Positions 1 through 25,303 of a DNA stretch of 64,000 nt are shown piece by piece. The notes under the pieces were generated by a model. That model had not been told where the DNA came from. It saw only the letters and a program-made list of their open reading frames with translations, and searched no databases. The translations under genes and the position numbers were made by a program. This DNA comes from Chloroflexota bacterium (GTDB taxonomy: Bacteria; Chloroflexota; Dehalococcoidia; JACPQK01), in the NCBI GenBank assembly GCA_016190505.1, contig JACPQM010000052.1:21027-85026 (forward strand), in the 5' to 3' direction. Position 1 is the first letter of the stretch. Every line of letters begins with the position of its first letter.

Positions 1-633
1 GGTCTCTGTGTTGATTTCTAAACCGCCCACGACGCGACGCCAAAGGTCGCGACCGGAGCCGATTCTCTTGAACCAGTTGATTGAGCCATGAAGTTTCACA
101 ATCTTGACCTGACGGTCACCCTTGATGTAGGTCGCCAGGTTGGAAAAGCCGAGTGTTGGGTCGTACAGTGTAACAGCCTTCTCCAGGAAGGTGTCATAGT
201 TGAGCGTCAAGAATAAGACTTGATGCTGGACTTCCGAAAGCAGTCCACCCAGCAGTTGGATGTAGGTCCCAGGGTAGTCCGTGTATTCGGCGACGACCTT
301 GAACAGCAAGTCTCTTAGATAAGGAGGCACGAATCTAAAGTGTTCCCTGAGTCGAGGATCAGCGTGCTGAGAGAACCTCCGCAATTCACGTTCCAGGATG
401 AATCCGTCCTTCCGGAGGCTCGGCTGCAACCGTGCCGCTATGACTTCGGCTCCTGGGTATTCTCGAAGGATACCGTAGAATGCAGGGTGCTCGTGGATGT
501 TAAACAAATCACGCGCCAAAGGAGGCTTCAGCTGTTCACGTCTCGGGGAGCTCCCATTCCACACATCAGATGAGGCTCCGGCCCCCAGTACCACGCACGC
601 TTTGGGCAGCTTGGCGACTTCCAAAACAGACAC
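1..633 (-). CDS. SIR2-like (SIR2_2 family) NAD-binding/NADase domain protein, 3'-partial (runs off the left edge; absent from the ORF track)
   Basis: Hand translation from GTG at 633 stays open to position 1. It shows the SIR2-like motifs VVLGAGAS, FLTLNYDTFLEKA and VKLHGSINWF. Confidence 0.8.
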   Translation of the reverse strand, partial: MSVLEVAKLPKACVVLGAGASSDVWNGSSPRREQLKPPLARDLFNIHEHPAFYGILREYPGAEVIAARLQPSLRKDGFILERELRRFSQHADPRLREHFRFVPPYLRDLLFKVVAEYTDYPGTYIQLLGGLLSEVQHQVLFLTLNYDTFLEKAVTLYDPTLGFSNLATYIKGDRQVKIVKLHGSINWFKRIGSGRDLWRRVVGGLEINTET

Positions 634-775: not shown

Positions 776-2773
776 CTACGTGCTCCTGGCTTCCTCAAGC
801 TGCTGGCTGATCCTCTCCGCCTCCACGGACAAACGCTCCCACTCATTGAAAAGGAGGTCTATTTCTGCTTTCAAGAGGCGGTATTTCTCGCTGGAGGCAA
901 CCACTTGAGCAGCATCACCATACTGGTCCGGATTAGAGAACAGCCTCTCCATTTCCGCTAGCTGTGACTCATGAGCCGGAAGCGCAACATCTATTTCAGC
1001 GATCCGCTTTGCGAGCTTTCGGCTCTCACGAATGAGCGTCTTCCGACGCTCCTCCTCTCCTCGGAGCGACTGTCGAGAGTCTTCCCCTAGAGGCCTGTTG
1101 CCCCTGGGGCCGTCCCTCGGAGTCTTGTCACCGTTCTTCGGAGCTTGAGCCAGTGCCGCCAACTGTTTTGCTTTCGTTTCCTTCCGGTACAAATAGCTGT
1201 CATAATCGCCCAGGAAGACCTCGGGTTCGCCGCACTCTATCTCTATGATCTTGTTAGCAACCTGCCTTATCAGGGTACGGTCATGGGTTATCAGGCAAAT
1301 CGTGCCCTGATAGTTGTTAAGAGCGTCGGCCAGGATCTCCCGTGAAGCCATATCCAAATGGTTGGTCGGTTCGTCCATCAGCAGCAGGTTGCTCGGCTGG
1401 AACAGTATCTTGGCCAGCGCCACGCGAGCCTTCTCTCCGCCGGACAGGACCGATATTGGCTTGTGGACATCATCACCGCTGAACATGAAGCCGCCCAGGA
1501 TTCGCCTCAGGTCCTGCTCAGGCTCTTCAGGATTCGCCTGATGCACCTCCTCGATGATCGTGTTGTTGGAGTTGAGAAGCTCAAGAACATATTGAGCGTA
1601 ATAGGCCATCACCACATTGTGGCCCAACACGCGTTCACCCTCTTCAAAGGGCAGGACTCCGGCGCAGATTTTGAGCATTGTTGTCTTGCCGGAGCCGTTG
1701 GGGCCGACCAGAGCGACCCTATCCCCACGGCTCAGCACCAGATTCAGATCGTGGTATACAGTGTGCGTACCGTATGACTTCCCGACGTGTTTCAGCGCTA
1801 TGACCTCCTCGCCACTCCGTGGCGGCTTCGGGAAGGAAAAGTGAATCCTCTTTGTGGCTCTCGGCAGCACAATCTTCTGCACCTTTTCAAGCTGCTTTAT
1901 CCGGCTTTGCACCTGGCCCGCCTTCGTGGCCTTAGCCCGAAAGCGCTCGACGAATCGCATCTGTTTCTGGAGAGCCCGCTCTTGCCGCATTGCTGCGCCC
2001 TGCTTGATCTCAAGCGAACGCTCTCGCGCAATCAGATAATCATCGTAGTTGCCGCGATGAAAAACGACTTCACCTGGCTCGATAGACAGGACTTTGCTGA
2101 CAACGTGATTCAGAAAGGTCCGGTCATGGGAGGTGACAATGACCCCTCCCCGAAACGCAGCGAGGTACTTTTCGAACCAGATACAGGCTTCAAGGTCCAG
2201 GTGATTCGTCGGCTCGTCCAGGAGCAGCATGTCGGGCCTCATGAACAGAAGCCTGGCCAGTGCGGCGCGCATCAGCCATCCACCGCTGAATTCACTCAAC
2301 GGACGGTTGAAGCCATCCTGCTTGAATCCCAGTCCCGAAAGGATGACCTTTGCCTCGTGTTCCGGATTGTAGCCGCCGGCTGCTTCCAGCGCGGTGTGCA
2401 ATTCGCCAAGCTCACGCAGTAGTCGGTCGCAGTTGCCGGTGCCCGTCTCTGCTGCCAACGCTTCCTCGGTTGTGGCGATCCGGTGCTCCAGTTCCATCTT
2501 CGTTGAGGAGCCATTCATCACTTCCTGAAGCAACGGCCTCTCGGAAGACGGGCGGATGTCCTGTTTCAAGTAGCCAATGGAGATATTGTTCTGTTTGGAC
2601 ATCTGGCCCGAGTCAGGAGCGGATTCACCTGCAAGGATATCCAACAAGGTCGTTTTCCCAGAGCCGTTCGCGCCAATCAATGCGATACGGTCCCTGACAT
2701 CTACATTGAAGCTAAGACCCTCGAACAGGACCCGGTCTGCATAGGTCTTGCTGATATTCGATACGCTTAGCAT
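776..2773 (-). CDS. ABC-F family ATP-binding protein (Uup/YheS/YdiF-like)
   Basis: Two ABC domains ([18 protein letters not shown]; FSGGW and LSGGE signatures; [11 protein letters not shown] twice), a linker and a C-terminal coiled coil, with no TM segments. Confidence 0.95.
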
Positions 2774-7500: not shown

Positions 7501-9060
7501 ATGCGCAATATGGATTTCATCAATTCACACAGGCCACCGGGACTTGCCGGAAAGGGTGACCGACATCTACCACAGCTTGCTCAGGACCTTGAGCGACTGC
7601 TCTCAAGGGTGGTGAGGTCGCTTGCCTTTGAGACGCTACGCCTGCCGAACGACGGCCTTGAGGAGCTGGCAGGTGTTCTGGTCGAGTTCGGTGAAGACAT
7701 TCACAATAACATTGGCATCTGGAACAGCTTGGAGCACTACAACCTTGAGTTCTTCGGCACTCGCCTCCCCTTTGTCGTCGGACCAGACGAGAGAGATCGG
7801 AGGCCCGCCAACGAGCATCGTCTTCAGCACCTGCTCTGGGTCATGTACTCCGAGCTAAAACCCGAGTTGCTCCTTTCACCCACACATCGGGACCTGACCC
7901 ATCTGGCAATATCGGTTTCCACCTTCCTGGGGAAGCGATTTGCGGGAATCCCACGGGGCTCGGCAGTCAAGGCATTCCTTGGGCGGCCAAACACGTTCGG
8001 CTGGGATGTGAAGAGGAAGCTGGTCTGGTTAGGGACGCACTCGTATCTCTTTCGCAACGGCTTTCGGAACTATGCGGGGGCGCATGAAAAACTGCCCCTC
8101 ATCCCCTTAACCGACGACTTCGTGTGTCAACAAACTACCGCCTGGTCTGGGCTTGGTGTCATTGACATTCTGGCGGCCACGCTTGACATGTCCCCGGAAC
8201 GACGCGCCACACTGCGCGGTTGGTACGAGAGACATACCGCCCTTTATCGGGTGGCAGCCATCAAGGGCGGCACAATGGAACTGCTGAATGCCATCAGCGG
8301 CAAGACATATACCGTGCGGATGGGGGAGGGCGCCAACCCGTTCCGAGTGGGACAGGTCGTAGTGGGCAGTCTGGTACCCTGGAACGGGGAATGGTACTGG
8401 GCAGGACAGCAGTCTGCCTACGATGACATGGCTGAGGGTCAACTGCAGAGCTTGAGAACTTCCTTCCTCAAGGATTCCCCAGTGGTAGCTTACCGTTATT
8501 GCGATGACCTGGCTGAAAAGGCATGGCGAGGACTGGATACCCACCACCGCGAGTTCGCAGCCTATCACGGCGATGATCTCGCAGTGTATCCCAACGGGTT
8601 GGCCATGGCCAGCGACCTCCAAAAAGAATGGCGACTCCAATGGCAGTCTCAGCCCGCAGAGGCGGTGGCCCGGGCAATGGCAGAGCACAAGCTGCCCAAC
8701 CCGTGGCCCTCGACGTCGTTTCCTCGTGAACTCCTTGAGCACGAGGAAGGGGTTGCCGTTTACTACAACCGGGATGAAGGCCAGGAAATGATGACCGGGT
8801 TCAACGACATCTTGGCCGGACTGAAGAAAAGGGGGCAGGACCTTACCGACGACGAGGCAAGCGGCATCAGGGAATTCGTTTCCTCCGACCACATTAGCCC
8901 CGCATTCGTCAAGAGAGTCGTTCGGGAATACGGTTACGAGTCTATCGAGTCGGCATTCTTGATTCGAGGCGATCACAAGGACTATCACCTCGACTATCTG
9001 CTCAGGCGGTATAAGGGAGCCTACTACCGAAAGCGGCACCCGCGCATCGCGCTTGTCTGA
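7501..9060 (+). CDS. DUF3843-like hypothetical protein
   Basis: 519 aa ORF; the N-terminal EDIHNNIGIWNSLEHYNLEFFGTRLPF resembles DUF3843 proteins (from memory). Confidence 0.55.
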   Translation: MRNMDFINSHRPPGLAGKGDRHLPQLAQDLERLLSRVVRSLAFETLRLPNDGLEELAGVLVEFGEDIHNNIGIWNSLEHYNLEFFGTRLPFVVGPDERDRRPANEHRLQHLLWVMYSELKPELLLSPTHRDLTHLAISVSTFLGKRFAGIPRGSAVKAFLGRPNTFGWDVKRKLVWLGTHSYLFRNGFRNYAGAHEKLPLIPLTDDFVCQQTTAWSGLGVIDILAATLDMSPERRATLRGWYERHTALYRVAAIKGGTMELLNAISGKTYTVRMGEGANPFRVGQVVVGSLVPWNGEWYWAGQQSAYDDMAEGQLQSLRTSFLKDSPVVAYRYCDDLAEKAWRGLDTHHREFAAYHGDDLAVYPNGLAMASDLQKEWRLQWQSQPAEAVARAMAEHKLPNPWPSTSFPRELLEHEEGVAVYYNRDEGQEMMTGFNDILAGLKKRGQDLTDDEASGIREFVSSDHISPAFVKRVVREYGYESIESAFLIRGDHKDYHLDYLLRRYKGAYYRKRHPRIALV

Positions 9061-9197
9061 ACCTAGCTAAAGAGAGGACGCGGCGCCGTCCCCGCCTAGC
9101 TAGCCCAGTAGGGAGTCGCAGTGGCGCCTATCGCGAGCCCGCACTGGTTCACGATAGCAAGCTGGTCATCGAGTCTGCCACTGTGGAATGGTTTGGC

Positions 9198-10346
9198 TCA
9201 TTGTTCCATCGCCTGTCGGGGGGCACTGCCGGCACCGGCCAACGGCAGGGTAAGTTGCAGGCTGTCGTGATGATCTGCCCCGTCATCGTTGAGCCGCTGC
9301 CGAGGACGCAGGGCGAAGGCTTCCTCGAACGAGCGCGCGTCCAAAAACTTTTTCCTTAGCCCCTCATAAGGGGGGAAGGCGCCGCCATATCCGATAACGC
9401 GCCGGGCGCGGGCCACCATTTCGAGTTGAACGGCGGTCCACTTCGGACCGACGTGCTGGTTCTTCTTGAGTGAGTTGAGTGGCTCGAAGCGCATCGGGTA
9501 GGCGACAACGCCCCAGTCAAGCAGGTCGCGTACCTTGTCCAGGAACTCCTCCGGTGAGTCGTGAAAGTTGTACAGGACGTAGACAATCATCCTTCGCCGG
9601 TTGAATCCGGCCGCGGCGAGAGCTGGAATGGCCCTTTCCAAGGCCCTTCTCTCAGCAGGCACATCATAGGCCATGCGCACGGGGCTAATGCGCAGTCCCC
9701 GGAACTCCTGAGCTACATCCTGCGTGATCCGCCGAGCGTCGAGGCCCTGGTTGAAGTCCACCGGGAGCCCTATCTCCTTGAGCTCTGCAATAAGGTCTCG
9801 CCAGTTTGTCGCGCCTAGCAGGTTGTTGTCCCAGAGCACTACCTTCGTGTGGCCGGGGGCCACCAGGTGCCTGATAGCCTTAACCGTTATCGGCCCGTTG
9901 GACTTCTCCATTAGCGGGACCGCACAGTAAGGGCAGTGGTTGACACATCCCCGGTGGCTGAAAACGATGCTCTGGCGCCACCCGGGGATCGAAGAGTAAT
10001 AGTAATCAGGTAAGAGGTCCTCAGCATCTGCGAAAAGCCCTGAGTGCACCTCATCGGCTCCAGACCGGGCAGCGTGCTCCGGCATTAGGGTAGCATATAT
10101 CCCGCCCACGACCAACTTTGCTACGGGGAACGCCCTCTTGTAGTACGCTACAGCCTGGTGGACAGGCTGCCAGGCATAGGTGAACAGGCTGGTCACGTAC
10201 ACCTTGTCCGGCACTCGAGCAACCGGCTGGCGACCGCGCACCAGTTCAACGGTATTCCCCAGCAGCTTGTGGTATGTCGCCAGCTTCAGGAGCCCCAGTG
10301 GGGGGTAGCGGCTGTAGTAGGCCGGTTCGACTAGCAGGACATGCAA
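9198..10346 (-). CDS. Radical SAM protein with B12-binding-type N-terminal domain
   Basis: CxxxCxxC motif (RGCVNHCPYC); N-terminal YPPLGLLKLATY and VVGGIYATL; DFNQGLDAR. Confidence 0.85.
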   Translation of the reverse strand: MHVLLVEPAYYSRYPPLGLLKLATYHKLLGNTVELVRGRQPVARVPDKVYVTSLFTYAWQPVHQAVAYYKRAFPVAKLVVGGIYATLMPEHAARSGADEVHSGLFADAEDLLPDYYYSSIPGWRQSIVFSHRGCVNHCPYCAVPLMEKSNGPITVKAIRHLVAPGHTKVVLWDNNLLGATNWRDLIAELKEIGLPVDFNQGLDARRITQDVAQEFRGLRISPVRMAYDVPAERRALERAIPALAAAGFNRRRMIVYVLYNFHDSPEEFLDKVRDLLDWGVVAYPMRFEPLNSLKKNQHVGPKWTAVQLEMVARARRVIGYGGAFPPYEGLRKKFLDARSFEEAFALRPRQRLNDDGADHHDSLQLTLPLAGAGSAPRQAMEQ

Positions 10347-10366
10347 TGTGGGATTACGCCTGTTCT

Positions 10367-12145
10367 TTAGGTGAGCGAGAGGAGACGTTGCACGACTTCC
10401 AGGAGTTCGTGATGTTCACGACCTTGGTCGTCCTTGTAGCGGTCTCTCTCCAGAATCTCATCACAACTCATATGCCTCACGAGACCACAGCACCCGTCCC
10501 CGATTAGGTGCTTGACGTCGCAGAAATCGTCGTTGGGGATATCCTTTCCTGTTTGGCGGTGGACGCAGGTAGGGTGGAGGTAGTTCTCTATCTCCCTTTT
10601 CCTTGTGAAATGGGCAACGGCGCCGTCAGCTTCACACTCGTGCCTAACCTTCAATCTGTCTGTGGAAAGGGTGCTACTAGGGCCTCGCAGATCGCTGTCG
10701 GCGAAAACCCCGTATCGCCTGCTGAGAGCGCGCATTGCCTGCCTGTCTACCCACAGTTTCATGTTCCCCCAACCACCCACCGGAACCAACCCTATTTGTT
10801 TGTCGGCAAACGTGGCATCCACGCATCCAGCTTCCTTGAGCTTACACGCCACGTAAGTCAGGAACTCTACGTCATCCCTTCCCTCGACGAAAACACATGC
10901 GCGGTAGGCATAGATTTGATCGCTGGGTTCCACACCCATGTCGTCGGCCAAGGCCCGCAGGTCAACGGCGTCGCCTTGAATGACTTGGGCGCTTCCTTGG
11001 GGCTTGGTTACCCACACAAGCGAGCCTCTTTCGGTCGCACCGGCAAACACAGGGGAGTGCGAAGTGACAATAACCTGGTTTTCCGCTGCTATCGCCCTCA
11101 ACGACTTGAGTAGTTCACGTTGGGCCCCGGGGTGCAAGTACGTCTCGGGTTCCTCAATGCCGAAAACGCGGTTTGCGGTCAGACGGCCCTCCGCCCGCCG
11201 ACTGGCCAGGTAGCGAAAGTACGCAACCATGAGAAGACGACGTAGGCCAGCCCCCCGTTTCACGAGAGGGACTGCTACGCCATCCCGATCTCTGGCCTCA
11301 ATGCGAAAACCCACCATATCTTTCCATTTGAACTCGGGACTTGCGCTCAAGGAACTGATATCCTCGGTATGTTGGGACAGGAAGTCATGTATCTTACCTA
11401 ATTCTCCGTTAATGAACTGCTCGATTGACTCCTCGATAGACTGGCGCTCTGCCAGAGTCTTGGTTGCCTCATCAACCATATCCCTGAACACCCTCTGAAA
11501 TGGTGTCTCCTCTTCACTTAGGCGCCAATCGGCCGCAAACAGATTGAATGTCGGGAAGTAAAGGGCCAATCTTCTTAGAACATCTTCGTCAGGCTGAATC
11601 TCCAAATCTCGTAGGGCCACTGCGCCGTCTTTTGCCTTCTCTCTTAGCTGCGCTCGCTTGTTCTTGTTGGTGACCCCTCTGCCGGCCTTTGAGAAACCGA
11701 GACCATGTTTGTCACCGGCGGCATTCAGATCGCGCTCGCTCTTGGAACAGAGATTCTGGAAATCGGCATGGTCGAAATCATTCACCAGCAGTCTGGATTC
11801 TGGCTTCTTTGCGCCCCTGGCCCAGGTGCGTCTGATCACCAAGCGCCCTTCGCGGTTCAGCAGGTGCTCCTCCGCCAATGTAGTGGCAACCCCTTCCTCG
11901 AATTCTATGGCTGGTGGCACGTCTGCGAAGGCAATGGTGATTTCTATCCTGGCATCCGATGTAGCTCCACGATTCCAGTCATCGGGATCAAGGGGTCTGT
12001 TGCTGAAGAAGATGTCCAGGGCATGAAGCACGCTCGATTTGCCAACGTCGTTTCTCCCAACCAACGTAGTGAGGGCTCCGAGCTGAACAGAGGCCTCGGT
12101 GTCGAACGCCCGAAAGTTCTTGAGAGTCACCCACTCGATCTTCAC
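10367..12145 (-). CDS. OLD-family ATP-dependent nuclease (ABC/AAA_15 ATPase + TOPRIM)
   Basis: LKNFRAF, Walker A GRNDVGKSS, signature RGAGLRR, Walker B IEEPETYLHP, TSHSP, and TOPRIM VFVEGRDD with DSD. Confidence 0.85.
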   Translation of the reverse strand: MKIEWVTLKNFRAFDTEASVQLGALTTLVGRNDVGKSSVLHALDIFFSNRPLDPDDWNRGATSDARIEITIAFADVPPAIEFEEGVATTLAEEHLLNREGRLVIRRTWARGAKKPESRLLVNDFDHADFQNLCSKSERDLNAAGDKHGLGFSKAGRGVTNKNKRAQLREKAKDGAVALRDLEIQPDEDVLRRLALYFPTFNLFAADWRLSEEETPFQRVFRDMVDEATKTLAERQSIEESIEQFINGELGKIHDFLSQHTEDISSLSASPEFKWKDMVGFRIEARDRDGVAVPLVKRGAGLRRLLMVAYFRYLASRRAEGRLTANRVFGIEEPETYLHPGAQRELLKSLRAIAAENQVIVTSHSPVFAGATERGSLVWVTKPQGSAQVIQGDAVDLRALADDMGVEPSDQIYAYRACVFVEGRDDVEFLTYVACKLKEAGCVDATFADKQIGLVPVGGWGNMKLWVDRQAMRALSRRYGVFADSDLRGPSSTLSTDRLKVRHECEADGAVAHFTRKREIENYLHPTCVHRQTGKDIPNDDFCDVKHLIGDGCCGLVRHMSCDEILERDRYKDDQGREHHELLEVVQRLLSLT

Positions 12146-12158
12146 CGGCAGTCCCCCT

Positions 12159-15100
12159 TTATGCCTTCAGCTCCGCCAGCGACTCCTGGATTTCTTTCAA
12201 CTCGTCGTTGGTGAGGCCCCACAAATCTGCCGCCAGTTGGTCAATGCGCCTCTCTATGGCGGCAACTGTCTCCTGGTCGCCCTCCGCCGCTGCCTGGTGC
12301 GCCTGCTGGGAGAGAGCGACCAACTCGCGGTGGATCTTGTCTCCAGCCTTGAACTTGGGGACGCGAACGTGCTCAAGAATATGAGGGTCAGGATGCAGCA
12401 CAATACAGTTCTTGGATGCAAAGCGAAAGGGCGAGGAATTGACCATGCCGCAAACGTAATGGGCCTCCTGCCTGCCGCCGCAAGAGACCGCTACCAGAGT
12501 GTGGTCTGGCATTGCCACCTTGCCATCGGACTCCGCCACTGCGGCGTCGGCTTCTTCCCCAACTTCCCTCCATACAACCTTGTACTCAGCCAAAGTATGC
12601 TCACTAACGCCGAACATCGAATAGAACGGTGCTCCTTTTTCCATGAGCCCTCTGCTGCCGCGGTCCTTCCTCGCCCAAAGTACTTCATCAAACCGCTTGA
12701 GGTAGGCGTAGGCCTTGGGGTAGTGCAGCTTCATGTCGTCTTCAGGGATGCCCCGGCGTAGCTCGGGGTCCTGGACCATGATGATATGGGCGGAGGGTGT
12801 CGCGGCCCAGCGCCTCACATCCCTCCCTCGGAGCAATGGGTAAATCAGGTCTGGCTCGATAGCGGCCTGCACACTTTCCACTTTCGTCCTAGCGCCCTCG
12901 GTCAGGTTGGAGACCATGGCCAAGCCCTGAGGGGTGTGGCCCACCACGTTGACCCAGTACACACCGTTGGCCCCTCCGGTGTTGACCCCCTCGTGGGCCC
13001 CGTAGTCAGACTTGCCCAGGACCTTCCTTACTGCTGCCAGCGCCTTAGGCTTGCCGGTGAGCCAGGCGGAAGTAGGGTCGGCAGCGTCAATCGGTTCGGC
13101 TTCGAACTTCCGGTAGGTGGCAACATCAAGCACCTGCCGGAATGAGAAATCGGTGCCAATGCCAATGCCCTTGACCTTCTTCCACCAGAAGTTGTAGCTG
13201 ACCGGGTACCTGGTGGGCCTGCCCTTCTCCAGCACGACTATGCTGGTCCTGTTACTGGCCCCCTCAAAGGGTTGAAGCTTCGTCATGTCGTCCACGGCGA
13301 GCACCTGAAGGCGCGTGCCATCGCCCAGGACAAAGCGCCTGAATCCCTGGCCCGCCCCCGAGGTCTTGAACACCGACTGGGTGATCACGAAGCCGAGCTT
13401 ACCGCTCGGGTGCAGGTAGTCGTGCATGGCCGAATAGGTCATGAGCATCGAGATGTCTTTCTTGCCCTTGCCCAGGATGGTGTCCATGCCGCCGTGCGGA
13501 AATAGGCCGTGATAGACCCAAAGGCGCTTGGTGTCGTTCCGGTAGTCGTCGGGCAAGCTCTCCCAGTTCACCCACGGGGGATTGCCCGCCACATAGTCGA
13601 AGTGACCGCAGAACAAGGGAGCGAAGGCGTTCTTAATGATGCGCGCCCAGATACCGTTGATGGCCCTTTCGTCGAGCTCCCTGATCCTGGCGTAAAGCTG
13701 CTCCAGGGCTTGAATGTCGTGGGCATCCTTACCTTCTACCAGAGGGAAAGCTTGGAGCAGGCGCTTGCGGAACTCACTGACCGCGTACTTGCTGTCTACG
13801 CACTCCTCGACCAGCCCGGCAAGCTGGTCAATGTACTGCGCCTTGACCAGGGAGCCGGGTATGGCGAACTCCCCCACCACCGTTTTGAAGCGATAGAGGC
13901 GCTCCTCGGCACCCACCATGCGCACCTGCTTCTGGCCCTTCTCAGGCTTCTTGGCTTCTTCCGGCTCAACCATGTCTTGCCCCGCCTGGGACGGCGTAAG
14001 GATGGAGTCGCAAAGGTAGACAGGGATGTTTACGTCGAAGTCCCGCTGCGCCTGGAGGAGGTCGCCCAGGGCCAGGAGGTAGTTGGTGCGGGCGGAGATG
14101 ATGGCCAAGGGGTTCAGGTCGAATCCCTGTATGTTGGACAGGATTTTGCTCAGCACGTCCGCCGACCGGATCGGGCGCTCAGCGCAGTGCTCCTTCACGC
14201 GCTTGATGGCCAGTACCAGGAAGGTGCCGGAGCCACAGGCGGGGTCCAGTAGCCGCTTCTCTTGCAGTCTAGGTTCGCGCTCCGAGGTGAACCCAACCTG
14301 ATTCAGCAGCCGCTCCGCGAGCCAGTCTGGGGTGTAGTACTCGCCCAGGTCATGGCGAAGCTGCCTGGGCATCACGTTCTGGTACAGCTTCTTGAGGAGG
14401 TCCCTAGTCTCGTCGGGGTCGGCGTCCAGGGTCACCAGCGAGTAGTTGGCCAGCTCAGAGACGATGCGGCGTATACCCTTGTCCACGGGTTCATCCCACA
14501 CCTCCAGATACCAGCCGAAGAAGTCGCCCTCCAGAAAGTTGCTGATCCCCAGTTGCTTGAAGATGCCGCCGCGCTCCATGTCTTTGAGGTACTTCTGTAG
14601 GCGGTCGCTGGGATAGCTGGCCACCTGGGGTAAGGCTGTGCCCAGCTTGGGGGCCACATAATAGTGGACCACCTGGAGGGCCAGAAGCTTGATAAACGTG
14701 GCGTAGTAGGTGTGGATGGAGAAAAACAGCCTGAAGGCGTTGGGCTTGGGGTCCTGGACACCGTACTGCCTGGCCACGGCCCGTACGTCCAGGCGTGGCG
14801 AGCCTTCCTCGTAGCCGCAGACCTCGCTGAACTGCTGCCGCCACTGGCCGTATATTACCGTGACTTTCGGGCTGGGCGACTCGGCCAGCGCCTTGTAGAG
14901 AGAGCTGACGGCGAGGCGTGCCACATTGGTGTTCTCGCCAAAGTCCCGGACCAGGTTGTCGGCGGTCAGAGCTTTCTCAGTGCTAAGCAGGTACAGTGAG
15001 GCAAGAAAACGTCCGGTAGAATCGGCTGCTACTGGGAGGGGATCATCGGCATGCCACACACCGCCCCGGAAGCGACAGAAGATGAAGAAGAAGCCATCGG

Positions 15101-15476
15101 TGGCTACGCCGGCCAGGCGCTCGGGCTTGTGCCTCTCCACCTTTACCAAGTCTTCGATATACTGCTTTACCTGGCCTACGGCTTGACGGTTCTTCTGGCT
15201 ATCCCTGGGCGTGAGCCTGCCAGGAGGCTCGTACTCTATGACGAAGCGGTTGTACACTGCGTCGGCCCGGCCATTGATGAGGGTATATTCCTCGCGGGGC
15301 TGCAAGGTCAGACCAAGGCCCTCGGCAAATCCCTCCAAGACGCGCCCCCGAGCCAGGTTCCCCCTGAACTGGGCTTCGTTGCCAATAGCATCGAGCGCCG
15401 CCTTCTTGATCTGCTCGGCTACTTCAGGGGAGTGTACCCTGATGGTATCTTCGGCGCTTTCTGTTGCCTGCGTCAT
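12159..15476 (-). CDS. Type IIG / Eco57I-like N6-adenine DNA methyltransferase with putative N-terminal nuclease domain and C-terminal target-recognition domain
   Basis: GEYYTP, motif I LLDPACGSGTFL and motif IV FDYVAGNPPW; 1105 aa. The N-terminal RADAVYNRFVIEYE is PD-(D/E)xK-like. Confidence 0.9.
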   Translation of the reverse strand: MTQATESAEDTIRVHSPEVAEQIKKAALDAIGNEAQFRGNLARGRVLEGFAEGLGLTLQPREEYTLINGRADAVYNRFVIEYEPPGRLTPRDSQKNRQAVGQVKQYIEDLVKVERHKPERLAGVATDGFFFIFCRFRGGVWHADDPLPVAADSTGRFLASLYLLSTEKALTADNLVRDFGENTNVARLAVSSLYKALAESPSPKVTVIYGQWRQQFSEVCGYEEGSPRLDVRAVARQYGVQDPKPNAFRLFFSIHTYYATFIKLLALQVVHYYVAPKLGTALPQVASYPSDRLQKYLKDMERGGIFKQLGISNFLEGDFFGWYLEVWDEPVDKGIRRIVSELANYSLVTLDADPDETRDLLKKLYQNVMPRQLRHDLGEYYTPDWLAERLLNQVGFTSEREPRLQEKRLLDPACGSGTFLVLAIKRVKEHCAERPIRSADVLSKILSNIQGFDLNPLAIISARTNYLLALGDLLQAQRDFDVNIPVYLCDSILTPSQAGQDMVEPEEAKKPEKGQKQVRMVGAEERLYRFKTVVGEFAIPGSLVKAQYIDQLAGLVEECVDSKYAVSEFRKRLLQAFPLVEGKDAHDIQALEQLYARIRELDERAINGIWARIIKNAFAPLFCGHFDYVAGNPPWVNWESLPDDYRNDTKRLWVYHGLFPHGGMDTILGKGKKDISMLMTYSAMHDYLHPSGKLGFVITQSVFKTSGAGQGFRRFVLGDGTRLQVLAVDDMTKLQPFEGASNRTSIVVLEKGRPTRYPVSYNFWWKKVKGIGIGTDFSFRQVLDVATYRKFEAEPIDAADPTSAWLTGKPKALAAVRKVLGKSDYGAHEGVNTGGANGVYWVNVVGHTPQGLAMVSNLTEGARTKVESVQAAIEPDLIYPLLRGRDVRRWAATPSAHIIMVQDPELRRGIPEDDMKLHYPKAYAYLKRFDEVLWARKDRGSRGLMEKGAPFYSMFGVSEHTLAEYKVVWREVGEEADAAVAESDGKVAMPDHTLVAVSCGGRQEAHYVCGMVNSSPFRFASKNCIVLHPDPHILEHVRVPKFKAGDKIHRELVALSQQAHQAAAEGDQETVAAIERRIDQLAADLWGLTNDELKEIQESLAELKA

Positions 15477-15487
15477 GCCTCGCCTCC

Positions 15488-17212
15488 CTATGCCTGCTGC
15501 TGCCTGTAGGCAGGCTTGGGGAAGACAACCTTTACGGGCTGGCGGTATATGGCGTGAGAGAGCAGGAGCTCACCCTTGTTGAGGCGGGTCACGTTGAGCT
15601 TCAAGTCGTCGTCCAGGAACTTGTAGTCAGGCTGGAGCACTTCGGCGGAACCAGAGCGCCCCAAGACCTTGGTCGCGGCGTTGCCAGTGACGCGCGAATG
15701 CACGGCGCTCATGAACTGTTGGGCCGAGACGAGGATGACCCCCAGGGACCGCCCCCTCTCCGCGATGTCCAACACTTGCTCGGAGATTGGCGATGTTTTC
15801 GCGCCGCTGGGGGCATATTTGTTCAGCTCGTCCACGAAGAAGATGATCTTGTCAGGTACTTCCTCTTCGCCTTCTTCAGGGGCCTCGGCCTTGAGAGCGT
15901 AGACGGTCTTAAGCAGGTCGCCGAACACCAAGGTCTGCTCGGCGTCGGCAAGCTTGGCTATGTCCACCACGTAAACATGGCCGCCCTTGATCTTGCCTAT
16001 CTCGGCGCTGAGCACTTTCTCGTTGATGGCACGGGATTCCACGAAGATCCCCGTCTGCCGGGTGTGAACCAGACGGCGAAGATGTCTTCGGAACTTACCT
16101 ACTGAGGACCCGAGGTGGTCTCCCAGCCTTACGGTCTTCTTTGCGGTGGGGTCAAACAGCGGTGGACCATAAAGCAAGGTCATCCAACTGCGCACGGCCT
16201 TGAAATCGGCCTGTCCTCCCTGGAGGCCAATCATGATGTCTCCGATGATGGACTCCATCGTCCCAGAGGGGTCCGAGACATCGCTGAAGAGCAGGTCTAG
16301 CTTGTCGGCAGTGGCTTCAAGGTCGTAGGCGTAGGTGGTGTAGATGCTAGGCGGGAAGAAGCTGTTGGGCTGAATCCCATCCTTGCTTCGCGGCAGGAAA
16401 TAGTGGACTTTGCCCGGCTCAAAGGGCTTGGGTTCCAGGCCCAGCTTCTCCCACTTCTCCTTCTCTTCGGGCGGCAGGTCCGGGCCCCGTTCATCAATGT
16501 GCAGCAAGTCGGCCTGCTTCACGTTCATGATGATGACGGCTATCTTCGTCGGATCGTCGGCTTTCTGAAGTATAGACTGGATGATGAACATGGCGTAGGA
16601 AGTCTTCGTCGCCAGCCCGCTGATCCCCGAGATGTTGATATGGGCAGATTCCGGGCCCAGCACGTAGCGGCGGTCAATGTAAGCCACCGCAGAAGCGCCG
16701 TTGCTCATGCTGATCAAACCGGCAGGAACTCGGTTTTTCAACTCCATTTGGTCAATGCCCAGAGCCTCTTCAATCCCATTGGCATCCGCAAACGTAACCA
16801 CTCGTTCGTTGGGAACAGGCATGTACACATTGGCGTTATTGCTGAGGACATTCACTTTGGCTATGGTGGTGCCCTGGCGAGGCGTGTTCGGTTCCTCGGC
16901 CAGACTACCGAAATTGCTGGATATAAAGTTGGCCAGGTGATTGGGCGCATCGGTCCGGTGTTCAAGGGTGGTGACCAGGCCGTAGGTCTTGCTGGCCTTG
17001 TTGTCCGGAGCAACCTGACCGACTTGCACAATGTCAAACGGGTTGACTATGACTTCGGGCGAAAGCCAGAAATTGAACTTGTCCGAGGTGCTGGGGTCTC
17101 GCTCCGTGGCGGAACTGCGCCCGACGGGCGCCTCGGCCGCCTTCCCCGGGGTTTGAGCTCCGTTCTTCTCGAGGGTGACCTGTGTAGGGGCTTGTATGCT
17201 CTCGTTCACCAT
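15488..17212 (-). CDS. HerA/FtsK-family ATPase with N-terminal HAS-barrel-like domain
   Basis: Variant Walker A GISGLATKTS, Walker B IFFVDELNKY and arginine-finger region ERGRSLGVILVSAQQ. ATG at 17212 follows GGAGGAGG. Confidence 0.85.
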   Translation of the reverse strand: MVNESIQAPTQVTLEKNGAQTPGKAAEAPVGRSSATERDPSTSDKFNFWLSPEVIVNPFDIVQVGQVAPDNKASKTYGLVTTLEHRTDAPNHLANFISSNFGSLAEEPNTPRQGTTIAKVNVLSNNANVYMPVPNERVVTFADANGIEEALGIDQMELKNRVPAGLISMSNGASAVAYIDRRYVLGPESAHINISGISGLATKTSYAMFIIQSILQKADDPTKIAVIIMNVKQADLLHIDERGPDLPPEEKEKWEKLGLEPKPFEPGKVHYFLPRSKDGIQPNSFFPPSIYTTYAYDLEATADKLDLLFSDVSDPSGTMESIIGDIMIGLQGGQADFKAVRSWMTLLYGPPLFDPTAKKTVRLGDHLGSSVGKFRRHLRRLVHTRQTGIFVESRAINEKVLSAEIGKIKGGHVYVVDIAKLADAEQTLVFGDLLKTVYALKAEAPEEGEEEVPDKIIFFVDELNKYAPSGAKTSPISEQVLDIAERGRSLGVILVSAQQFMSAVHSRVTGNAATKVLGRSGSAEVLQPDYKFLDDDLKLNVTRLNKGELLLSHAIYRQPVKVVFPKPAYRQQQA

Positions 17213-17228
17213 TTCGGCCTCCTCCACC

Positions 17229-18356
17229 TCAGGGTGCACCTGGCTTGGGCCATTTGATGGCTCCCATGAGCACTTGCTGGGAAAAGAACCGGTTCTTGGT
17301 GGCCTGCTCCGCCATAAAGATGGGATAGATGTGGCAGTGCCAACGCCTGTCCAAGCCGTATGGGGTGACGCTTCGTTCTGCTACCAGGGCCCGGGACAGC
17401 AGGTCCGCCAAGTCAGCGGGCACCGGCTTCCGGTCGGGTCGGGGCAACTCTACCTTGACCACGCCCATAAGAGGATAGTCCAGGTCCTTTTGTTCCCACA
17501 TCCTGACGTACCAGAAAGCGACCTTCCCGTCATAAGCCTTGAAGGCCATCGTGCGGTGGGCATAGGGCAGCGCCGCCAGGATGGTGGTAACGTCCCTCTT
17601 CTCGGATTTCCTTGCCCCAAAGTAGAACTGGGGCTCCTTGCTGAATGATTTTGCCACCCCGATCAAGTGAGGCGCGGAGATGAAGTCTCCGAGTTTGACA
17701 GCGCCGTCTATTATTAGCCAGCTATCCTCGCTCCGGAGATGGTCCGTTGCCTTGATAAGCTCGGCCTCCATCTCGTGCATCCGGAAACGCGCTTTACCGC
17801 CCGCCTTGTCCCTGGGGTCTTTCTTGTCGTCGCCAAATACATCTGGAATGTCGAAATCAACTATCTGTAGGACGCTGCCGGGCGGTTGAACCTTTGAGAG
17901 CTGGGTCCAGACCGAATCCGACACTCCGCGAGCACCCTTGGGAACGAGAAGCAAAACCTTGAGGTCGCTGGAAAGGGTGCTGAGGTGCCCGTGCTCGTCC
18001 CGGGTGACCACGGATGCCCCAATCTGCGCCAACTCGATGGGGAAAGTCCGAGTACCCTCGATCCCCGTGGCCAGGAAGTACGTCCGTAGGCTTCCGTCCA
18101 AGAAGAACCTGAACAGATGACGTTCCGCACGAGGCAATGGAGGCGTCGGCCTGTATATGTTGGTGGTCGAAGGCTCAGGCTCTTCGGCGAAGGCTGTGAC
18201 ATCCTTGTCCATTTCCTTGTGGACCAGGACATCGTCAATCTCGTCCTGGTCTGGGTGCTGTAGGTCTTCGACGGCCGTGCCCGTGGCCGGCAATATGTTG
18301 AGGTTCTTGCCCAGCAGTTCCAGGGCCGGAGTGATTACCGACAAGGGGTTGGGCAC
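17229..18356 (-). CDS. NurA-like (RNase H fold) nuclease
   Basis: FFLDGSLRTY and LIIDGAV acidic motifs, GVAKS, late EQ; lies directly upstream of a herA-like gene. Confidence 0.7.
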   Translation of the reverse strand: MPNPLSVITPALELLGKNLNILPATGTAVEDLQHPDQDEIDDVLVHKEMDKDVTAFAEEPEPSTTNIYRPTPPLPRAERHLFRFFLDGSLRTYFLATGIEGTRTFPIELAQIGASVVTRDEHGHLSTLSSDLKVLLLVPKGARGVSDSVWTQLSKVQPPGSVLQIVDFDIPDVFGDDKKDPRDKAGGKARFRMHEMEAELIKATDHLRSEDSWLIIDGAVKLGDFISAPHLIGVAKSFSKEPQFYFGARKSEKRDVTTILAALPYAHRTMAFKAYDGKVAFWYVRMWEQKDLDYPLMGVVKVELPRPDRKPVPADLADLLSRALVAERSVTPYGLDRRWHCHIYPIFMAEQATKNRFFSQQVLMGAIKWPKPGAP

Positions 18357-18651
18357 GGTTCAACTCCCGTCAGGAATCCAAAAGTACCTGGGGGCTACTC
18401 GCCCCGACCTAGGACGTGCTGGTATCGCAACTGCAACTGCGACCAACGCTCCAGCACGAAGTCCACTTGACTGGGGCAATTGTGCAACTTTTCGCTGCGG
18501 CGCGCAAGGTGCCCGCCGTTTGGAGAGCTACCTATTCTTTCGGACCGGAAGTGGGCAATCGCGTCACGCACCCGCGTCGGCGGTGGACTGGTTGCGGACC
18601 TCAACGCAGTGCAGCCTCGCATGGAACGATCTAGCGAAAAGTTCGCTGACG

Positions 18652-18722
18652 GCCCAATGCGGCCATGACCCGCGTGTTGTCGGCGCGGCAATTACAGGTC
18701 GGCGTCAATGGCCCTGTTGGGT
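18652..18722 (-). mobile_element. attC-like integron cassette recombination site
   Basis: Minus strand reads ACCCAAC-agggcc-ATTGACgCCG...CGGGTCAT-ggccgc-ATTGGGC. It has an RYYYAAC left core, paired L boxes with two extrahelical bases and a near-GTTRRRY right core, and overlaps the ORF stop. Confidence 0.6.
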
Positions 18723-19033
18723 GTTTTTCTTATTTTCACTCGGAAAGCGTCCTCTCCGAAACTGTGGTACGTAACGACGGTTAAGTGATAAGATCGGCCT
18801 CCCACCGTGATGCTTCTGCCTTCCCTTCCGATAGCGTACAGGTGCTCTCGCAGAGTACGGGCGTCCTCGCTTGTCGACTCAATGCTGGCGATGCCAGCCC
18901 CCGTTTTGCCTCTGAGTGCACACACGTCTTCGCGGCCGTCCTTGTATTCGATTTCCAAGGTATCCGCTCGGTGCCTGAGCGTATCTGCGACCAGGCGGTG
19001 CAGGATGCCCCCAGGCTCCGACCGCAACTGCAT
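18692..19033 (-). CDS. Hypothetical cassette protein (113 aa)
   Basis: AAGGAGGGG RBS; the ORF sits between two attC-like sites. Confidence 0.7.
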   Translation of the reverse strand: MQLRSEPGGILHRLVADTLRHRADTLEIEYKDGREDVCALRGKTGAGIASIESTSEDARTLREHLYAIGREGRSITVGGRSYHLTVVTYHSFGEDAFRVKIRKTPNRAIDADL

Positions 19034-23591: not shown

Positions 23592-25031
23592 ATGCGCGGC
23601 ATGGGCTTGACACCGGATAGGGGCTATCCTCAGAATTGGTGCCTAAAGAGCGGAAGCCCCTGTGCGGGGGCGATTGATGCCGGAGCAGCGAGGAGGCCCC
23701 TCATGCCCAGAAGCATGGCCAGACTAGCGCAGCCCCGGGGCGATGCCAAGGCCCCGGTTCCATCTACGCCATCCCCAGAGTCAGTAATGGCCGATGCCGA
23801 TGCGTTCTTTGCCGAGGGTACCCCAGGCGAAGACTTTCTCTCTTCATTGGAAGTAAAGCAAGTCCCATACCCCAGCAACCTTGACATTCAAGATCGCATC
23901 GAGGAAACCAAGGCCGAGATCTCCCACCGCATTGCGGAACTGGAAACCCGTTTGGCGCAACTGGGGGGCATTGTATCGGCGACCTCACATCCCCAAGTAC
24001 CGAGCATCTCGACCGCATCCCTTATCGATCTCTTGCTAGCGCAAAAAGCCCACAAGGGCGTGAAAGATAGTCATGGCAGGACTCTGGCGAAGCACGTCAG
24101 GCGGTTTGGCAAGGCCTTCCCATCCTTGCCCCTCGACTCTCAGGCCATCATTGAGTATCTGTCGCAGTTCAATGGAATATCCGGCCGCACGCGGCGGAAT
24201 CACCAGGATAGTCTACGACAGCTTTACAAGGTCGCCGCGGCCCGGCTTGGCGTCCCTAATGTGTTGGCCCAGATTGAACGCCCGCTGGTGCGCCAGCGGC
24301 CGCCACGGACCCTATCCCTGGACCAAGTGCGCCTCGTCGTCGCCGCCGCAATGGAAGGAATGGAGAGGACTGCGCTGGATCTGGCACTAGGCCATGGCTG
24401 GCGGCAAGTGGAGGTCAGGAGGATAACTGGCGAAGATGTCCGCGCAATCGAGGCAGGTCTGATTGCATGCCACGGGAAAGAACGAGAAGAGCTCGCGCCC
24501 GTGCTTCCCGAAACCGTAGAGCGACTGTCACGGCTAGCTGAGGGGTGTTCAGGGCCTATCTTCCTGGACCGCCGGGGGCGCTCGCAGCCGTTGGGTGAGG
24601 ATGGCATGAGCGATTTGCTCAAAGGCATCATGAACAGGGCGAGGGTGAGTGGTTTCAGTGGCCACGACCTTCGCCGTACGTTCGCAACCCTCGTGCGCGA
24701 TGCCTCAGGGGACGAGCTGCTGGCAATGAGGCTGCTTCGCGATCGGGTTCCTGGCGTGGCAGACCGTTACCTCGCATCCAATCTGGGAGAACTTTGCCGG
24801 GCGCTTCAAAACTACTCCCCGGTTAGGCAGATCCATCACGAAGTGCCGCATCACAACAACGGCCAGGGGCGCCGCACTGTCGACGCCAACCCCCCGGCAA
24901 ACCCTCACGCACCCCCCCGTCAGACCGCAGCTTTAGCAGGCCGGGGGGATACATGGTGGAGACGGGGGGGAGTCGAACCCCCCGTCCAGAGACGGACACC
25001 CAGGCTGCCTACAAGCTTATCCGACCATTAG
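23592..25031 (+). CDS. Tyrosine recombinase / phage-type integrase (true start probably further downstream, e.g. 23703)
   Basis: Catalytic residues R (GWRQVE), K (GKE), HxxR (HDLRRTFAT) and Y (ADRY); SAM-like N-domain. The ORF tail overlaps the ssrA 3' end in antisense. Confidence 0.85.
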   Translation: MRGMGLTPDRGYPQNWCLKSGSPCAGAIDAGAARRPLMPRSMARLAQPRGDAKAPVPSTPSPESVMADADAFFAEGTPGEDFLSSLEVKQVPYPSNLDIQDRIEETKAEISHRIAELETRLAQLGGIVSATSHPQVPSISTASLIDLLLAQKAHKGVKDSHGRTLAKHVRRFGKAFPSLPLDSQAIIEYLSQFNGISGRTRRNHQDSLRQLYKVAAARLGVPNVLAQIERPLVRQRPPRTLSLDQVRLVVAAAMEGMERTALDLALGHGWRQVEVRRITGEDVRAIEAGLIACHGKEREELAPVLPETVERLSRLAEGCSGPIFLDRRGRSQPLGEDGMSDLLKGIMNRARVSGFSGHDLRRTFATLVRDASGDELLAMRLLRDRVPGVADRYLASNLGELCRALQNYSPVRQIHHEVPHHNNGQGRRTVDANPPANPHAPPRQTAALAGRGDTWWRRGGVEPPVQRRTPRLPTSLSDH

Positions 25032-25303
25032 CTCTCGCCCTGCCTGTGGCCGTCGGCCGCCCCCTGGCAGGGCCAGTCGGTTACTTTTCTTTGACGGGCC
25101 AGACCGACATAGGGCCCATCGCACCCCTTCTGTTCGGCGCCTTGACCAGGCCCGAAGGGTGAAGCCTGGGAGGCGTAGTCGCTGTTTAGGCGGCTAGGGC
25201 GAAATCGTTTGCGCCAGTTATGTTTTGCCCCGTTTTTACGAGGTCAGGGCGCCTCGGCTTGCCATCCTGGGACGCCACACCCCTGTCGAAACCACGCGTC
25301 CCC
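24954..25303 (-). ncRNA. ssrA: tmRNA (350 nt); tag reading frame (A)GANDFALAA*
   Basis: 5' GGGGACG pairs with 3' CGTCTCC-ACCA including the G3-U alanine identity pair. T-arm GGTTCGACTCC; ATAACT-GGC GCA AAC GAT TTC GCC CTA GCC GCC TAA; smpB lies ~1 kb upstream. Confidence 0.95.

Follow-up and report, generated by a model that had tools for sequence, protein, structure and literature searches.

A probable TdtA-type NurA-HerA cassette with a type IIG restriction enzyme and a radical SAM partner in a Chloroflexota genome

Five genes on the minus strand of a 64,000-nt stretch of Chloroflexota DNA (contig JACPQM010000052.1; hereafter the window) were analysed. They encode, in this order, a NurA-like nuclease (gene A), a HerA/FtsK-class ATPase (gene B), a type IIG restriction enzyme (gene C), an OLD-family protein (gene D) and a radical S-adenosylmethionine (SAM) protein (gene E). 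Genes A-C very probably constitute a TdtA-type cassette, as regards the identity of both the parts and the whole. The function we favour, with a probability of about one half, is defence in which restriction would be coupled to DNA resection.

A preliminary description, made from the letters of this DNA, had proposed the five genes as an undescribed combination. All five of its domain assignments hold at family level, as supported by profile, PDB, Pfam, PADLOC and fold evidence. The combination of NurA, HerA (TdtA) and a Tth111II-type IIG enzyme, however, is that of the tdtA operon of ICEth1 (PMC5365140) and is found in at least 273 species genomes. PADLOC names no such cassette, in line with the proposed novelty, but the literature describes its core.

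Genes A to C and the Thermus precedent

In ICEth1 of T. thermophilus HB27, a single operon, termed a 'DNA secretion system', encodes the type IIG enzyme Tth111II/TthHB27I (TTC1877; 1106 aa), a NurA-like protein (TTC1878; 377 aa), the HerA/FtsK ATPase TdtA (TTC1879) and an N4/N6 methylase (TTC1880), in that order (PMC5365140). Blesa et al. 2017 also name T. scotoductus DSM 8553 as carrying a tdtA-like cluster (PMC5365140), and the contig that holds it was recovered by our genome scan (locus L052). With the tdtA-like gene of this strain, gene B shares 59-61% identity and scores 676 bits; with the strain's second HerA paralogue, the score is 101 bits. Gene B is an orthologue of TdtA, to which it is far closer than to the housekeeping HerA paralogue. 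In the PDB search it matched D. radiodurans HerA (7f6d_B, E=2.8e-38), and it has the Walker A motif GISGLATKTS at 205 and the Walker B motif FFVDELNKY at 467. A database search yielded 7851 related proteins at E <= 0.001, the best 120 of which are 67-88% identical to gene B. Relatives in plasmid and phage collections are all distant (27-37% identical), and PADLOC gave only weak and generic HerA matches.

No match to gene A was found in Pfam, PADLOC or NCBIfam. A family profile of 43 homologues matched D. radiodurans NurA (7f6d_H, E=1.2e-4). An AlphaFold2 (AF2) model (predicted local distance difference test score, pLDDT, 86; predicted template modelling score, pTM, 0.86) gave a single strong Foldseek match, NurA 7f6d_G (E=5.7e-11, TM 0.54/0.60), with 18% sequence identity in the structural alignment. 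Residues D87 (LDGS), D217 (IDGA) and D336/R338/W339 are invariant among the 43 homologues and H340 is near-invariant, the RRWH motif being conserved along with the LDGS and IDGA aspartates. Gene A is predicted to encode a NurA-fold, RNase H-like nuclease with conserved, putatively catalytic acidic residues.

Gene C matched the PADLOC model REase_MTase_IIG (PDLC03630) over its whole length with 1157 bits, and Pfam families N6_Mtase, Eco57I and MmeI_Mtase. From end to end it shares 45% identity with the enzyme that T. scotoductus encodes beside the tdtA-like gene, and the N-terminus of that enzyme is the published TspDTI peptide. The TspDTI/Tth111II/TsoI subfamily is characterized by an atypical D-EXE nuclease motif and by DPACGSG and NPPW sequences (PMC3384240). 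In gene C, D72, E81 and E83 align with D66, E75 and E77 of the TspDTI D-EXE motif, DPACGSG is located at 411 and NPPW at 632. Because all three published signatures are present, gene C is predicted to combine restriction with methylation, as a member of the TspDTI/Tth111II subfamily. Its sequence is that of an endonuclease and a putative gamma-class N6-adenine methyltransferase joined in one chain, with a C-terminal recognition domain. In the preliminary description gene C was a methyltransferase that marks self DNA; the type IIG assignment and the methylation motifs stand, but with an intact D-EXE nuclease domain the protein is not a methylase alone.

The recognition region of gene C (residues 700-1100) is only 26-56% identical among close relatives, compared to 74-95% for the N-terminal half and about 81-88% for HerA of the same relatives. 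Such divergence is the pattern expected of turnover of restriction-modification (R-M) specificity. Two loci (L011 and L024) hold decayed copies of the cassette with the IIG gene broken into two open reading frames (ORFs).

Conserved unit, OLD insertion and radical SAM partner

To study the distribution of the cassette, each species was represented by one genome and searched with a gene B family alignment as query. Of the 273 relatives found, 80 were analysed as loci; the five operon proteins were compared with 86 loci by tblastn, followed by crude ORF calling and clustering. Relatives of the HerA cassette are widespread: at least 273 species genomes have one, and more than 12 phyla are represented. 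With few exceptions among the 80 loci, a NurA homologue directly precedes HerA, and a type IIG enzyme is present in every locus whose contig reaches far enough. There are two gene orders: IIG-NurA-HerA, seen in Thermus, and NurA-HerA-IIG, seen here. In a quick maximum-likelihood HerA tree (IQ-TREE, with Shimodaira-Hasegawa approximate likelihood ratio test, SH-aLRT, support) all NurA-HerA-IIG and radical SAM rows group in a single clade of 28 (SH-aLRT 99), from which IIG-first rows are absent. In a separate IIG-first clade, c5 (support 100), HerA is followed by a PF01555 methylase. Judged by the tree and the gene orders, the operon belongs to a distinct NurA-HerA-IIG sublineage, where a radical SAM gene appears to replace the second N4/N6 methylase of one IIG-first clade and of ICEth1.

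The cassette is patchily distributed. A close HerA homologue was found in 4 of the 32 Thermus species and in none of 40 genomes of the class to which the window belongs. Integrases recur near related cassettes. Among 143 sampled flanking proteins scanned with Pfam, the commonest families were AAA_21 and AAA_15 ATPases, DUF3800, integrases, N6_N4 methylase, Fic and NACHT, and none of the 25 commonest was a conjugation family. Nearly or fully identical HerA sequences were seen in distant taxa, namely in T. scotoductus (L052) and a metagenome-assembled genome (MAG) labelled 'Clostridiales' (L056), and in Caldisericales (L025) and a Patescibacteria MAG (L026); either very recent transfer or mis-binned contigs would account for them. 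Within the genus Thermus, two genomes (G439 and G432) hold decayed TdtA-like genes, one of them interrupted by an in-frame TGA and the other split.

Gene D matched Pfam AAA_15 (1.7e-39) and the Old, GajA and AriA models of PADLOC; its best PDB match was the class 1 OLD protein of T. scotoductus (6p74, E=3.3e-11). Walker A (GRNDVGKS at 30), VEGRDD (at 420) and ADSD (at 482) motifs were identified, and the C-terminal part matched OLD-like_TOPRIM (PF20469) with 18.8 bits, under the 23.2-bit cut-off. No helicase gene was found within the operon. Homologues of gene D were absent by tblastn from the 80 genome loci, except for two weak fragments (L050 and L080; 27-29% identity, 18% coverage). Its GC content at third codon positions (GC3) is 0.62, while genes A, B, C and E have values of 0.73-0.78. 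What lies between the IIG and radical SAM genes is variable: across relatives this slot is empty or contains DUF3800, NT5C-like, GHKL ATPase, SPL-like or small unknown proteins. Since the slot contents vary, we take the conserved unit to be the four genes A, B, C and E. Gene D, because it is a compositional outlier and has no homologue beyond the two fragments, is, on sequence grounds, a locus-specific insertion of separate origin encoding a predicted class-1-like OLD protein. The IIG-radical SAM slot thus gathers add-on effectors and resembles the embedded-gene slots of other R-M-like systems.

These data bear on the scheme of the preliminary description, in which all five genes act together: methylation and radical SAM hypermodification mark self DNA, OLD is the primary nuclease on unmarked DNA, and HerA-NurA completes the degradation. 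The genes do form one tight co-oriented block, related cassettes repeatedly have OLD-family and AAA_15 genes in their vicinity, and radical SAM genes occupy the methylase slot elsewhere. However, OLD homologues in the 80 loci are limited to the partial matches above, and the GC3 of gene D sets it apart from its neighbours. In the closest relatives, L007 and L103, the order is NurA-HerA-IIG-rSAM (rSAM, radical SAM) with gaps of 9-16 nt and nothing between the last two genes. L103, a metagenomic locus, does have an OLD gene, but outside the operon, on the opposite strand in convergent orientation, and only 25% identical to gene D. Nor is OLD needed as the cutter, because gene C has its own intact D-EXE nuclease domain. 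We consider such a five-part system very improbable. The conservation expected of its neighbourhood was found for A, B, C and E, which co-occur in the sublineage, but not for D.

The radical SAM protein, gene E, contains CVNHCPYC at 134, with the CxxxCxxC cysteines at C134, C138 and C141. B12-binding (PF02310) was matched with 24.8 bits, under the cut-off. The gene E family profile matched AprD4, RimO, TsrM, NocN and TokK, and an AF2 model (pLDDT 81) matched an MtaB model (the top Foldseek match), TokK, LipA, Mmp10 and corrinoid proteins. Gene E is predicted to be a class B-type radical SAM enzyme, with CxxxCxxC and an N-terminal B12-like Rossmann domain; cobalamin binding is putative. Methylthiotransferase identity (MiaB/RimO/MtaB) was considered and rejected: residues 1-133 contain no cysteine, which leaves no place for the auxiliary cluster of that type, and no TRAM match was obtained.

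A homologue of gene E was found within 10 kb in 15 of 15 NurA-HerA-IIG loci with enough downstream sequence, nearly always downstream of the IIG gene and in one case on the opposite strand. Beside the sampled IIG-first loci, tblastn detected none. In NurA-HerA-IIG-rSAM contexts the homologues are 69-80% identical to gene E. None of the papers we found describes a radical SAM partner of NurA-HerA-IIG. Tandem long-form radical SAM genes are present downstream of IIG in three loci (L009, L022 and L025); since the first copy lacks CxxxCxxC, it may be an inactive paralogue.

The family extends well beyond the cassette (2561 matches at E <= 1e-5; 540 relatives in a metagenome scan). In about seven distinct metagenome loci, a radical SAM gene 55-61% identical to gene E is clustered with NurA, HerA, Metallophos (Mre11) and SMC (Rad50) genes, which follow it in this order. 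The Mre11-Rad50-type clusters were seen at L119/L156, L140, L150, L152, L153 and L174, with SMC/AAA_23 Rad50-like proteins. Because one locus has histone and thermosome neighbours, some of the clusters are probably archaeal. Further contexts are NurA-HerA-rSAM and NurA-HerA-GHKL-rSAM, both lacking a IIG enzyme. One example is a complete genome of the same class (G132; L098:4197-10516), with NurA-like, HerA-like (37% identical), GHKL HATPase_c_3 and radical SAM (601 aa) genes in a row and no type IIG gene. In the metagenome loci L120-L199 the commonest neighbour, seen in 22 loci, is a protein of about 350 aa with DPxNxR and EGNRR motifs, weakly similar to ParB/Noc (profile E=0.018) and to PADLOC PDC-M38A. 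A clear ParB_N protein and pairs of a GHKL ATPase with a protein of about 335 aa without assignment also recur there. In Archaeoglobus neptunius (JAEKIW010000005.1, L117:5331-14850) a radical SAM gene 55% identical to gene E opens a DISARM operon consisting of DrmA (362 bits), DrmB, DrmC and DrmE (DrmE_C). No methyltransferase was found in that operon or its immediate flanks.

The recurrent partners that could be assigned are all DNA-acting: NurA-HerA, Mre11-Rad50, ParB-like proteins, GHKL ATPase, DISARM and SNF2 helicase. In two R-M-like systems the radical SAM gene occupies the position expected of a methylase, which keeps alive, at a low probability, the preliminary description's idea of a second self-mark. 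A tentative and rather doubtful extension is that the family modifies DNA: it would make a radical-based self-mark new to DNA and be a modification module that restriction-like systems can exchange for another. The Mre11-Rad50 contexts point instead to end or lesion processing.

These contexts also suggest an explanation in which NurA-HerA and the radical SAM protein are a repair module that travels with the IIG enzyme, resects and mends the breaks made by this enzyme in under-methylated self DNA, for example after acquisition, and so lowers the cost of R-M carriage. The radical SAM genes directly beside NurA-HerA-Mre11-Rad50 would fit it, as would the SPL-like radical SAM protein, a member of a DNA-repair family, in the slot of L025, and a repair role for NurA was also weighed by Blesa et al. 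(PMC5365140). Against it, housekeeping HerA paralogues of the D. radiodurans type are separate in Thermus, the cassette is accessory and horizontally mobile, and the embedded effector genes are left unexplained. We regard this explanation as improbable.

Proposed mechanism and competing explanations

We propose that the cassette acts in defence as follows. The type IIG enzyme would methylate adenine at an asymmetric site on self DNA, and would nick or incompletely cut unmethylated incoming DNA about 11/9 nt downstream of the site. NurA-HerA would load on the nicks and ends made by the IIG enzyme and degrade the DNA processively. By this 'restriction-licensed resection' the weak, nick-prone cutting of the Thermus-family enzymes would be turned into irreversible destruction. 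The radical SAM enzyme would act on DNA, either placing a second self-mark or processing ends, and OLD would be an independent add-on effector. The coupling of a methylating enzyme to HerA-NurA degradation had been put forward in the preliminary description, and we judge that idea, as a proposed mechanism, to be right. We estimate the probability of restriction-licensed resection at about 0.5.

Several observations favour restriction or genetic conflict over DNA export: divergence of the IIG recognition region, the makeup of the flanking families, embedded effector genes such as OLD and the patchiness of the cassette. To these is added the reported behaviour of Tth111II, an enzyme of low specific activity that nicks preferentially in the top strand (PMC5365140).

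A number of points weigh against the defence mechanism. The sole experiments on the cassette, in Thermus HB27, demonstrated DNA donation ('transjugation') and not defence (PMC5365140, PMC7767461), and no phage or plasmid challenge of the cassette has been reported. PADLOC (v2.0.0) has no model for the NurA protein or for the whole cassette. Expression, methylation and cutting at the operon are predicted activities. The radical SAM family is also found beside archaeal NurA-HerA-Mre11-Rad50 clusters that resemble repair operons. Finally, the tallies of gene orders and neighbours come from a crude ORF caller and 80-locus samples, not from a full census.

The Thermus experiments suggest the other major explanation, that the operon is DNA-donation machinery as in ICEth1: the IIG enzyme would cut the host chromosome at many sites, NurA would trim the ends, and the TdtA-like motor would pump the fragments to competent neighbours, spreading the element together with host genes. 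Donation is the only function of a homologous operon with experimental support. In HB27 mutants that lack Tth111II, NurA or TdtA, transfer is 3-5 or more orders of magnitude lower (PMC5365140, PMC7767461), while loss of the ICEth1 methylase affects it only slightly (PMC7767461). The 59-61% identity of gene B to the Thermus tdtA-like gene is consistent with donation, as are the tyrosine integrase and ssrA site nearby and the integrases near related cassettes. However, neither a competence link nor a membrane-anchoring feature is evident, and transjugation is not known from the hosts (Chloroflexota, Omnitrophota, Armatimonadota and others). A fast-diverging IIG recognition half has no obvious use in export, and neither do embedded defence-type genes (OLD, DUF3800, GHKL, STAND/NACHT). 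The presence of an additional methylase or radical SAM gene points to protection of self DNA and not to its cleavage. Donation thus appears unlikely as the function of the operon described here.

The restriction enzyme-NurA-HerA cassette is present in hundreds of species of many phyla and has been studied once, in Thermus, solely for DNA donation. If restriction-licensed resection is true, it would explain why Thermus-family type IIG enzymes cut poorly on their own, and bacterial NurA-HerA would have a function other than repair. Less is settled about the radical SAM partner, which recurs beside unrelated DNA translocase and nuclease systems, sometimes at the position expected of a methyltransferase. 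Should it prove to make a second mark, NurA-HerA-IIG-rSAM would be a widespread defence system, as yet without a name, that uses two self-marks of different chemistry.

Genomic setting and comparison with known systems

The features of the operon and its surroundings are listed in Table 1. The preliminary description of five co-oriented genes with gaps of 11-20 nt was borne out by minus-strand ORFs at the positions given there. The probable true start of gene B is an ATG at 17212 with an upstream Shine-Dalgarno sequence (GGAGGAGG), which makes a protein of 574 aa. With this start the A-B gap is 16 nt (-11 nt with the ORF start at 17239); the B-C, C-D and D-E gaps are 11, 13 and 20 nt. Genes B, C and D each have a Shine-Dalgarno-like motif upstream. 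A consensus scan revealed no terminator-like sites within the operon gaps, and a promoter and terminator scan of 8900-18900 revealed nothing exceeding shuffled expectation.

Table 1. Operon genes and neighbouring features, in window coordinates
Feature	Position	Strand	Basis or remark
Gene A, NurA-like nuclease (predicted), 375 aa	17229..18356	-	NurA fold and family profile
Gene B, HerA/FtsK-class ATPase, TdtA orthologue, 583 aa as ORF	15488..17239	-	7f6d_B match
Gene C, bifunctional type IIG/IIC restriction endonuclease-methyltransferase (predicted), 1105 aa	12159..15476	-	PADLOC, Pfam, motifs
Gene D, OLD-family ABC-ATPase and TOPRIM nuclease (predicted), 592 aa	10367..12145	-	Pfam, PADLOC, PDB
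Gene E, B12-binding-like/radical SAM protein (predicted), 382 aa, TTG start	9198..10346	-	CVNHCPYC, profile, fold
Tyrosine integrase	23592..25031	+	Pfam Phage_integrase 1e-7; adjoins 3' end of transfer-messenger RNA (tmRNA) gene; context only
tmRNA (ssrA)	24954..25303	-	ARAGORN; tag peptide GANDFALAA; context
DUF3843 protein, 519 aa	7501-9060	+	Convergent with gene E, the final gene of the operon

The tmRNA gene and the tyrosine integrase are 5-7 kb upstream of the operon. No repeats of the tmRNA 3' end of at least 16 nt that would define island borders were found in 1-25400; the attempt to delimit the island by attachment (att) repeats yielded only chance-level repeats of 16-23 nt. We treat the integrase as genomic context only. 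Low GC content was also rejected as an island marker because housekeeping Tex and ABC-F genes share it. An unannotated 241-aa ORF precedes the DUF3843 gene, and neither was seen near related cassettes. At positions 1-633 (minus strand) a partial ORF running off the window start matched SIR2_2 (PF13289, 3.2e-6) and, weakly, PADLOC SIR2 models; it may be another defence-type gene, located beside the housekeeping ABC-F and Tex genes.

Known defence systems were compared with the operon. As the preliminary description had held, it is not Gabija, BREX or DISARM, for the GajB, PglZ/BrxC and DrmA/B sets were not found. GajB and AriB are not among the neighbours, which excludes Gabija and PARIS, and BREX (PglZ and BrxC), DISARM (DrmA and DrmB) and MADS (mad1-8) gave just generic methylase or P-loop matches at the operon. 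MADS/Hma membership, suggested by mad2, mad3 and mad8 matches, was rejected since the same models match the housekeeping ABC-F gene more strongly. This gene (window 776-2773, minus strand) scored 200 bits with mad3 and 47 bits with mad8; these PADLOC models are unspecific and can yield false defence calls. The BREX-related HerA 'capture' systems (PMC12839542) and HerA capture by DndH (PMC10853773) are different systems.

Gene D resembles class 1 OLD proteins (P2 Old; T. scotoductus OLD, 6P74) and Gabija GajA in its predicted N-terminal ABC-type ATPase and C-terminal TOPRIM domain with E and DxD. Unlike in Gabija and PARIS, the OLD gene is embedded in another operon, with neither GajB helicase nor AriB. 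Gene E shares a Rossmann-like B12-type domain and a CxxxCxxC barrel with cobalamin-dependent radical SAM enzymes (TokK, TsrM, Mmp10, CysS) and with AprD4. It is far shorter than the cobalamin-dependent enzymes (about 350 structured residues) and its partners are DNA machines rather than biosynthetic clusters.

The D. radiodurans and archaeal NurA-HerA end-resection complex (7F6D) has the same NurA fold and HerA ATPase, and here, too, a nuclease dimer would presumably sit on a hexameric translocase. The partner in our operon is a restriction enzyme and not Mre11-Rad50, and the genes are accessory and mobile. Gene C agrees with the TspDTI-subfamily enzymes TspDTI, Tth111II/TthHB27I and TsoI (PMC3384240) in size, R-Mh-Mc-S order and the D-EXE, DPACGSG and NPPW motifs. 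It differs from them in its C-terminal recognition region, in which identity even to close relatives is only about 40-60%.

The closest system is the tdtA operon of ICEth1. Both have a TspDTI-subfamily IIG enzyme of about 1105 aa and a NurA-like gene (about 376 aa) just upstream of HerA/TdtA (about 565 aa), with very short gaps, and both have a patchy distribution, move horizontally and lie near a tyrosine integrase. The order, however, is NurA-HerA-IIG here and IIG-NurA-HerA there. The PF01555 methylase is missing here, a B12-like radical SAM gene stands at the 3' end and an OLD gene is inserted. The host is Chloroflexota-like, and att repeats were not found in 1-25400. What differs from the Thermus precedent is, in sum, the gene order, the conserved radical SAM partner and the locus-specific OLD insertion.

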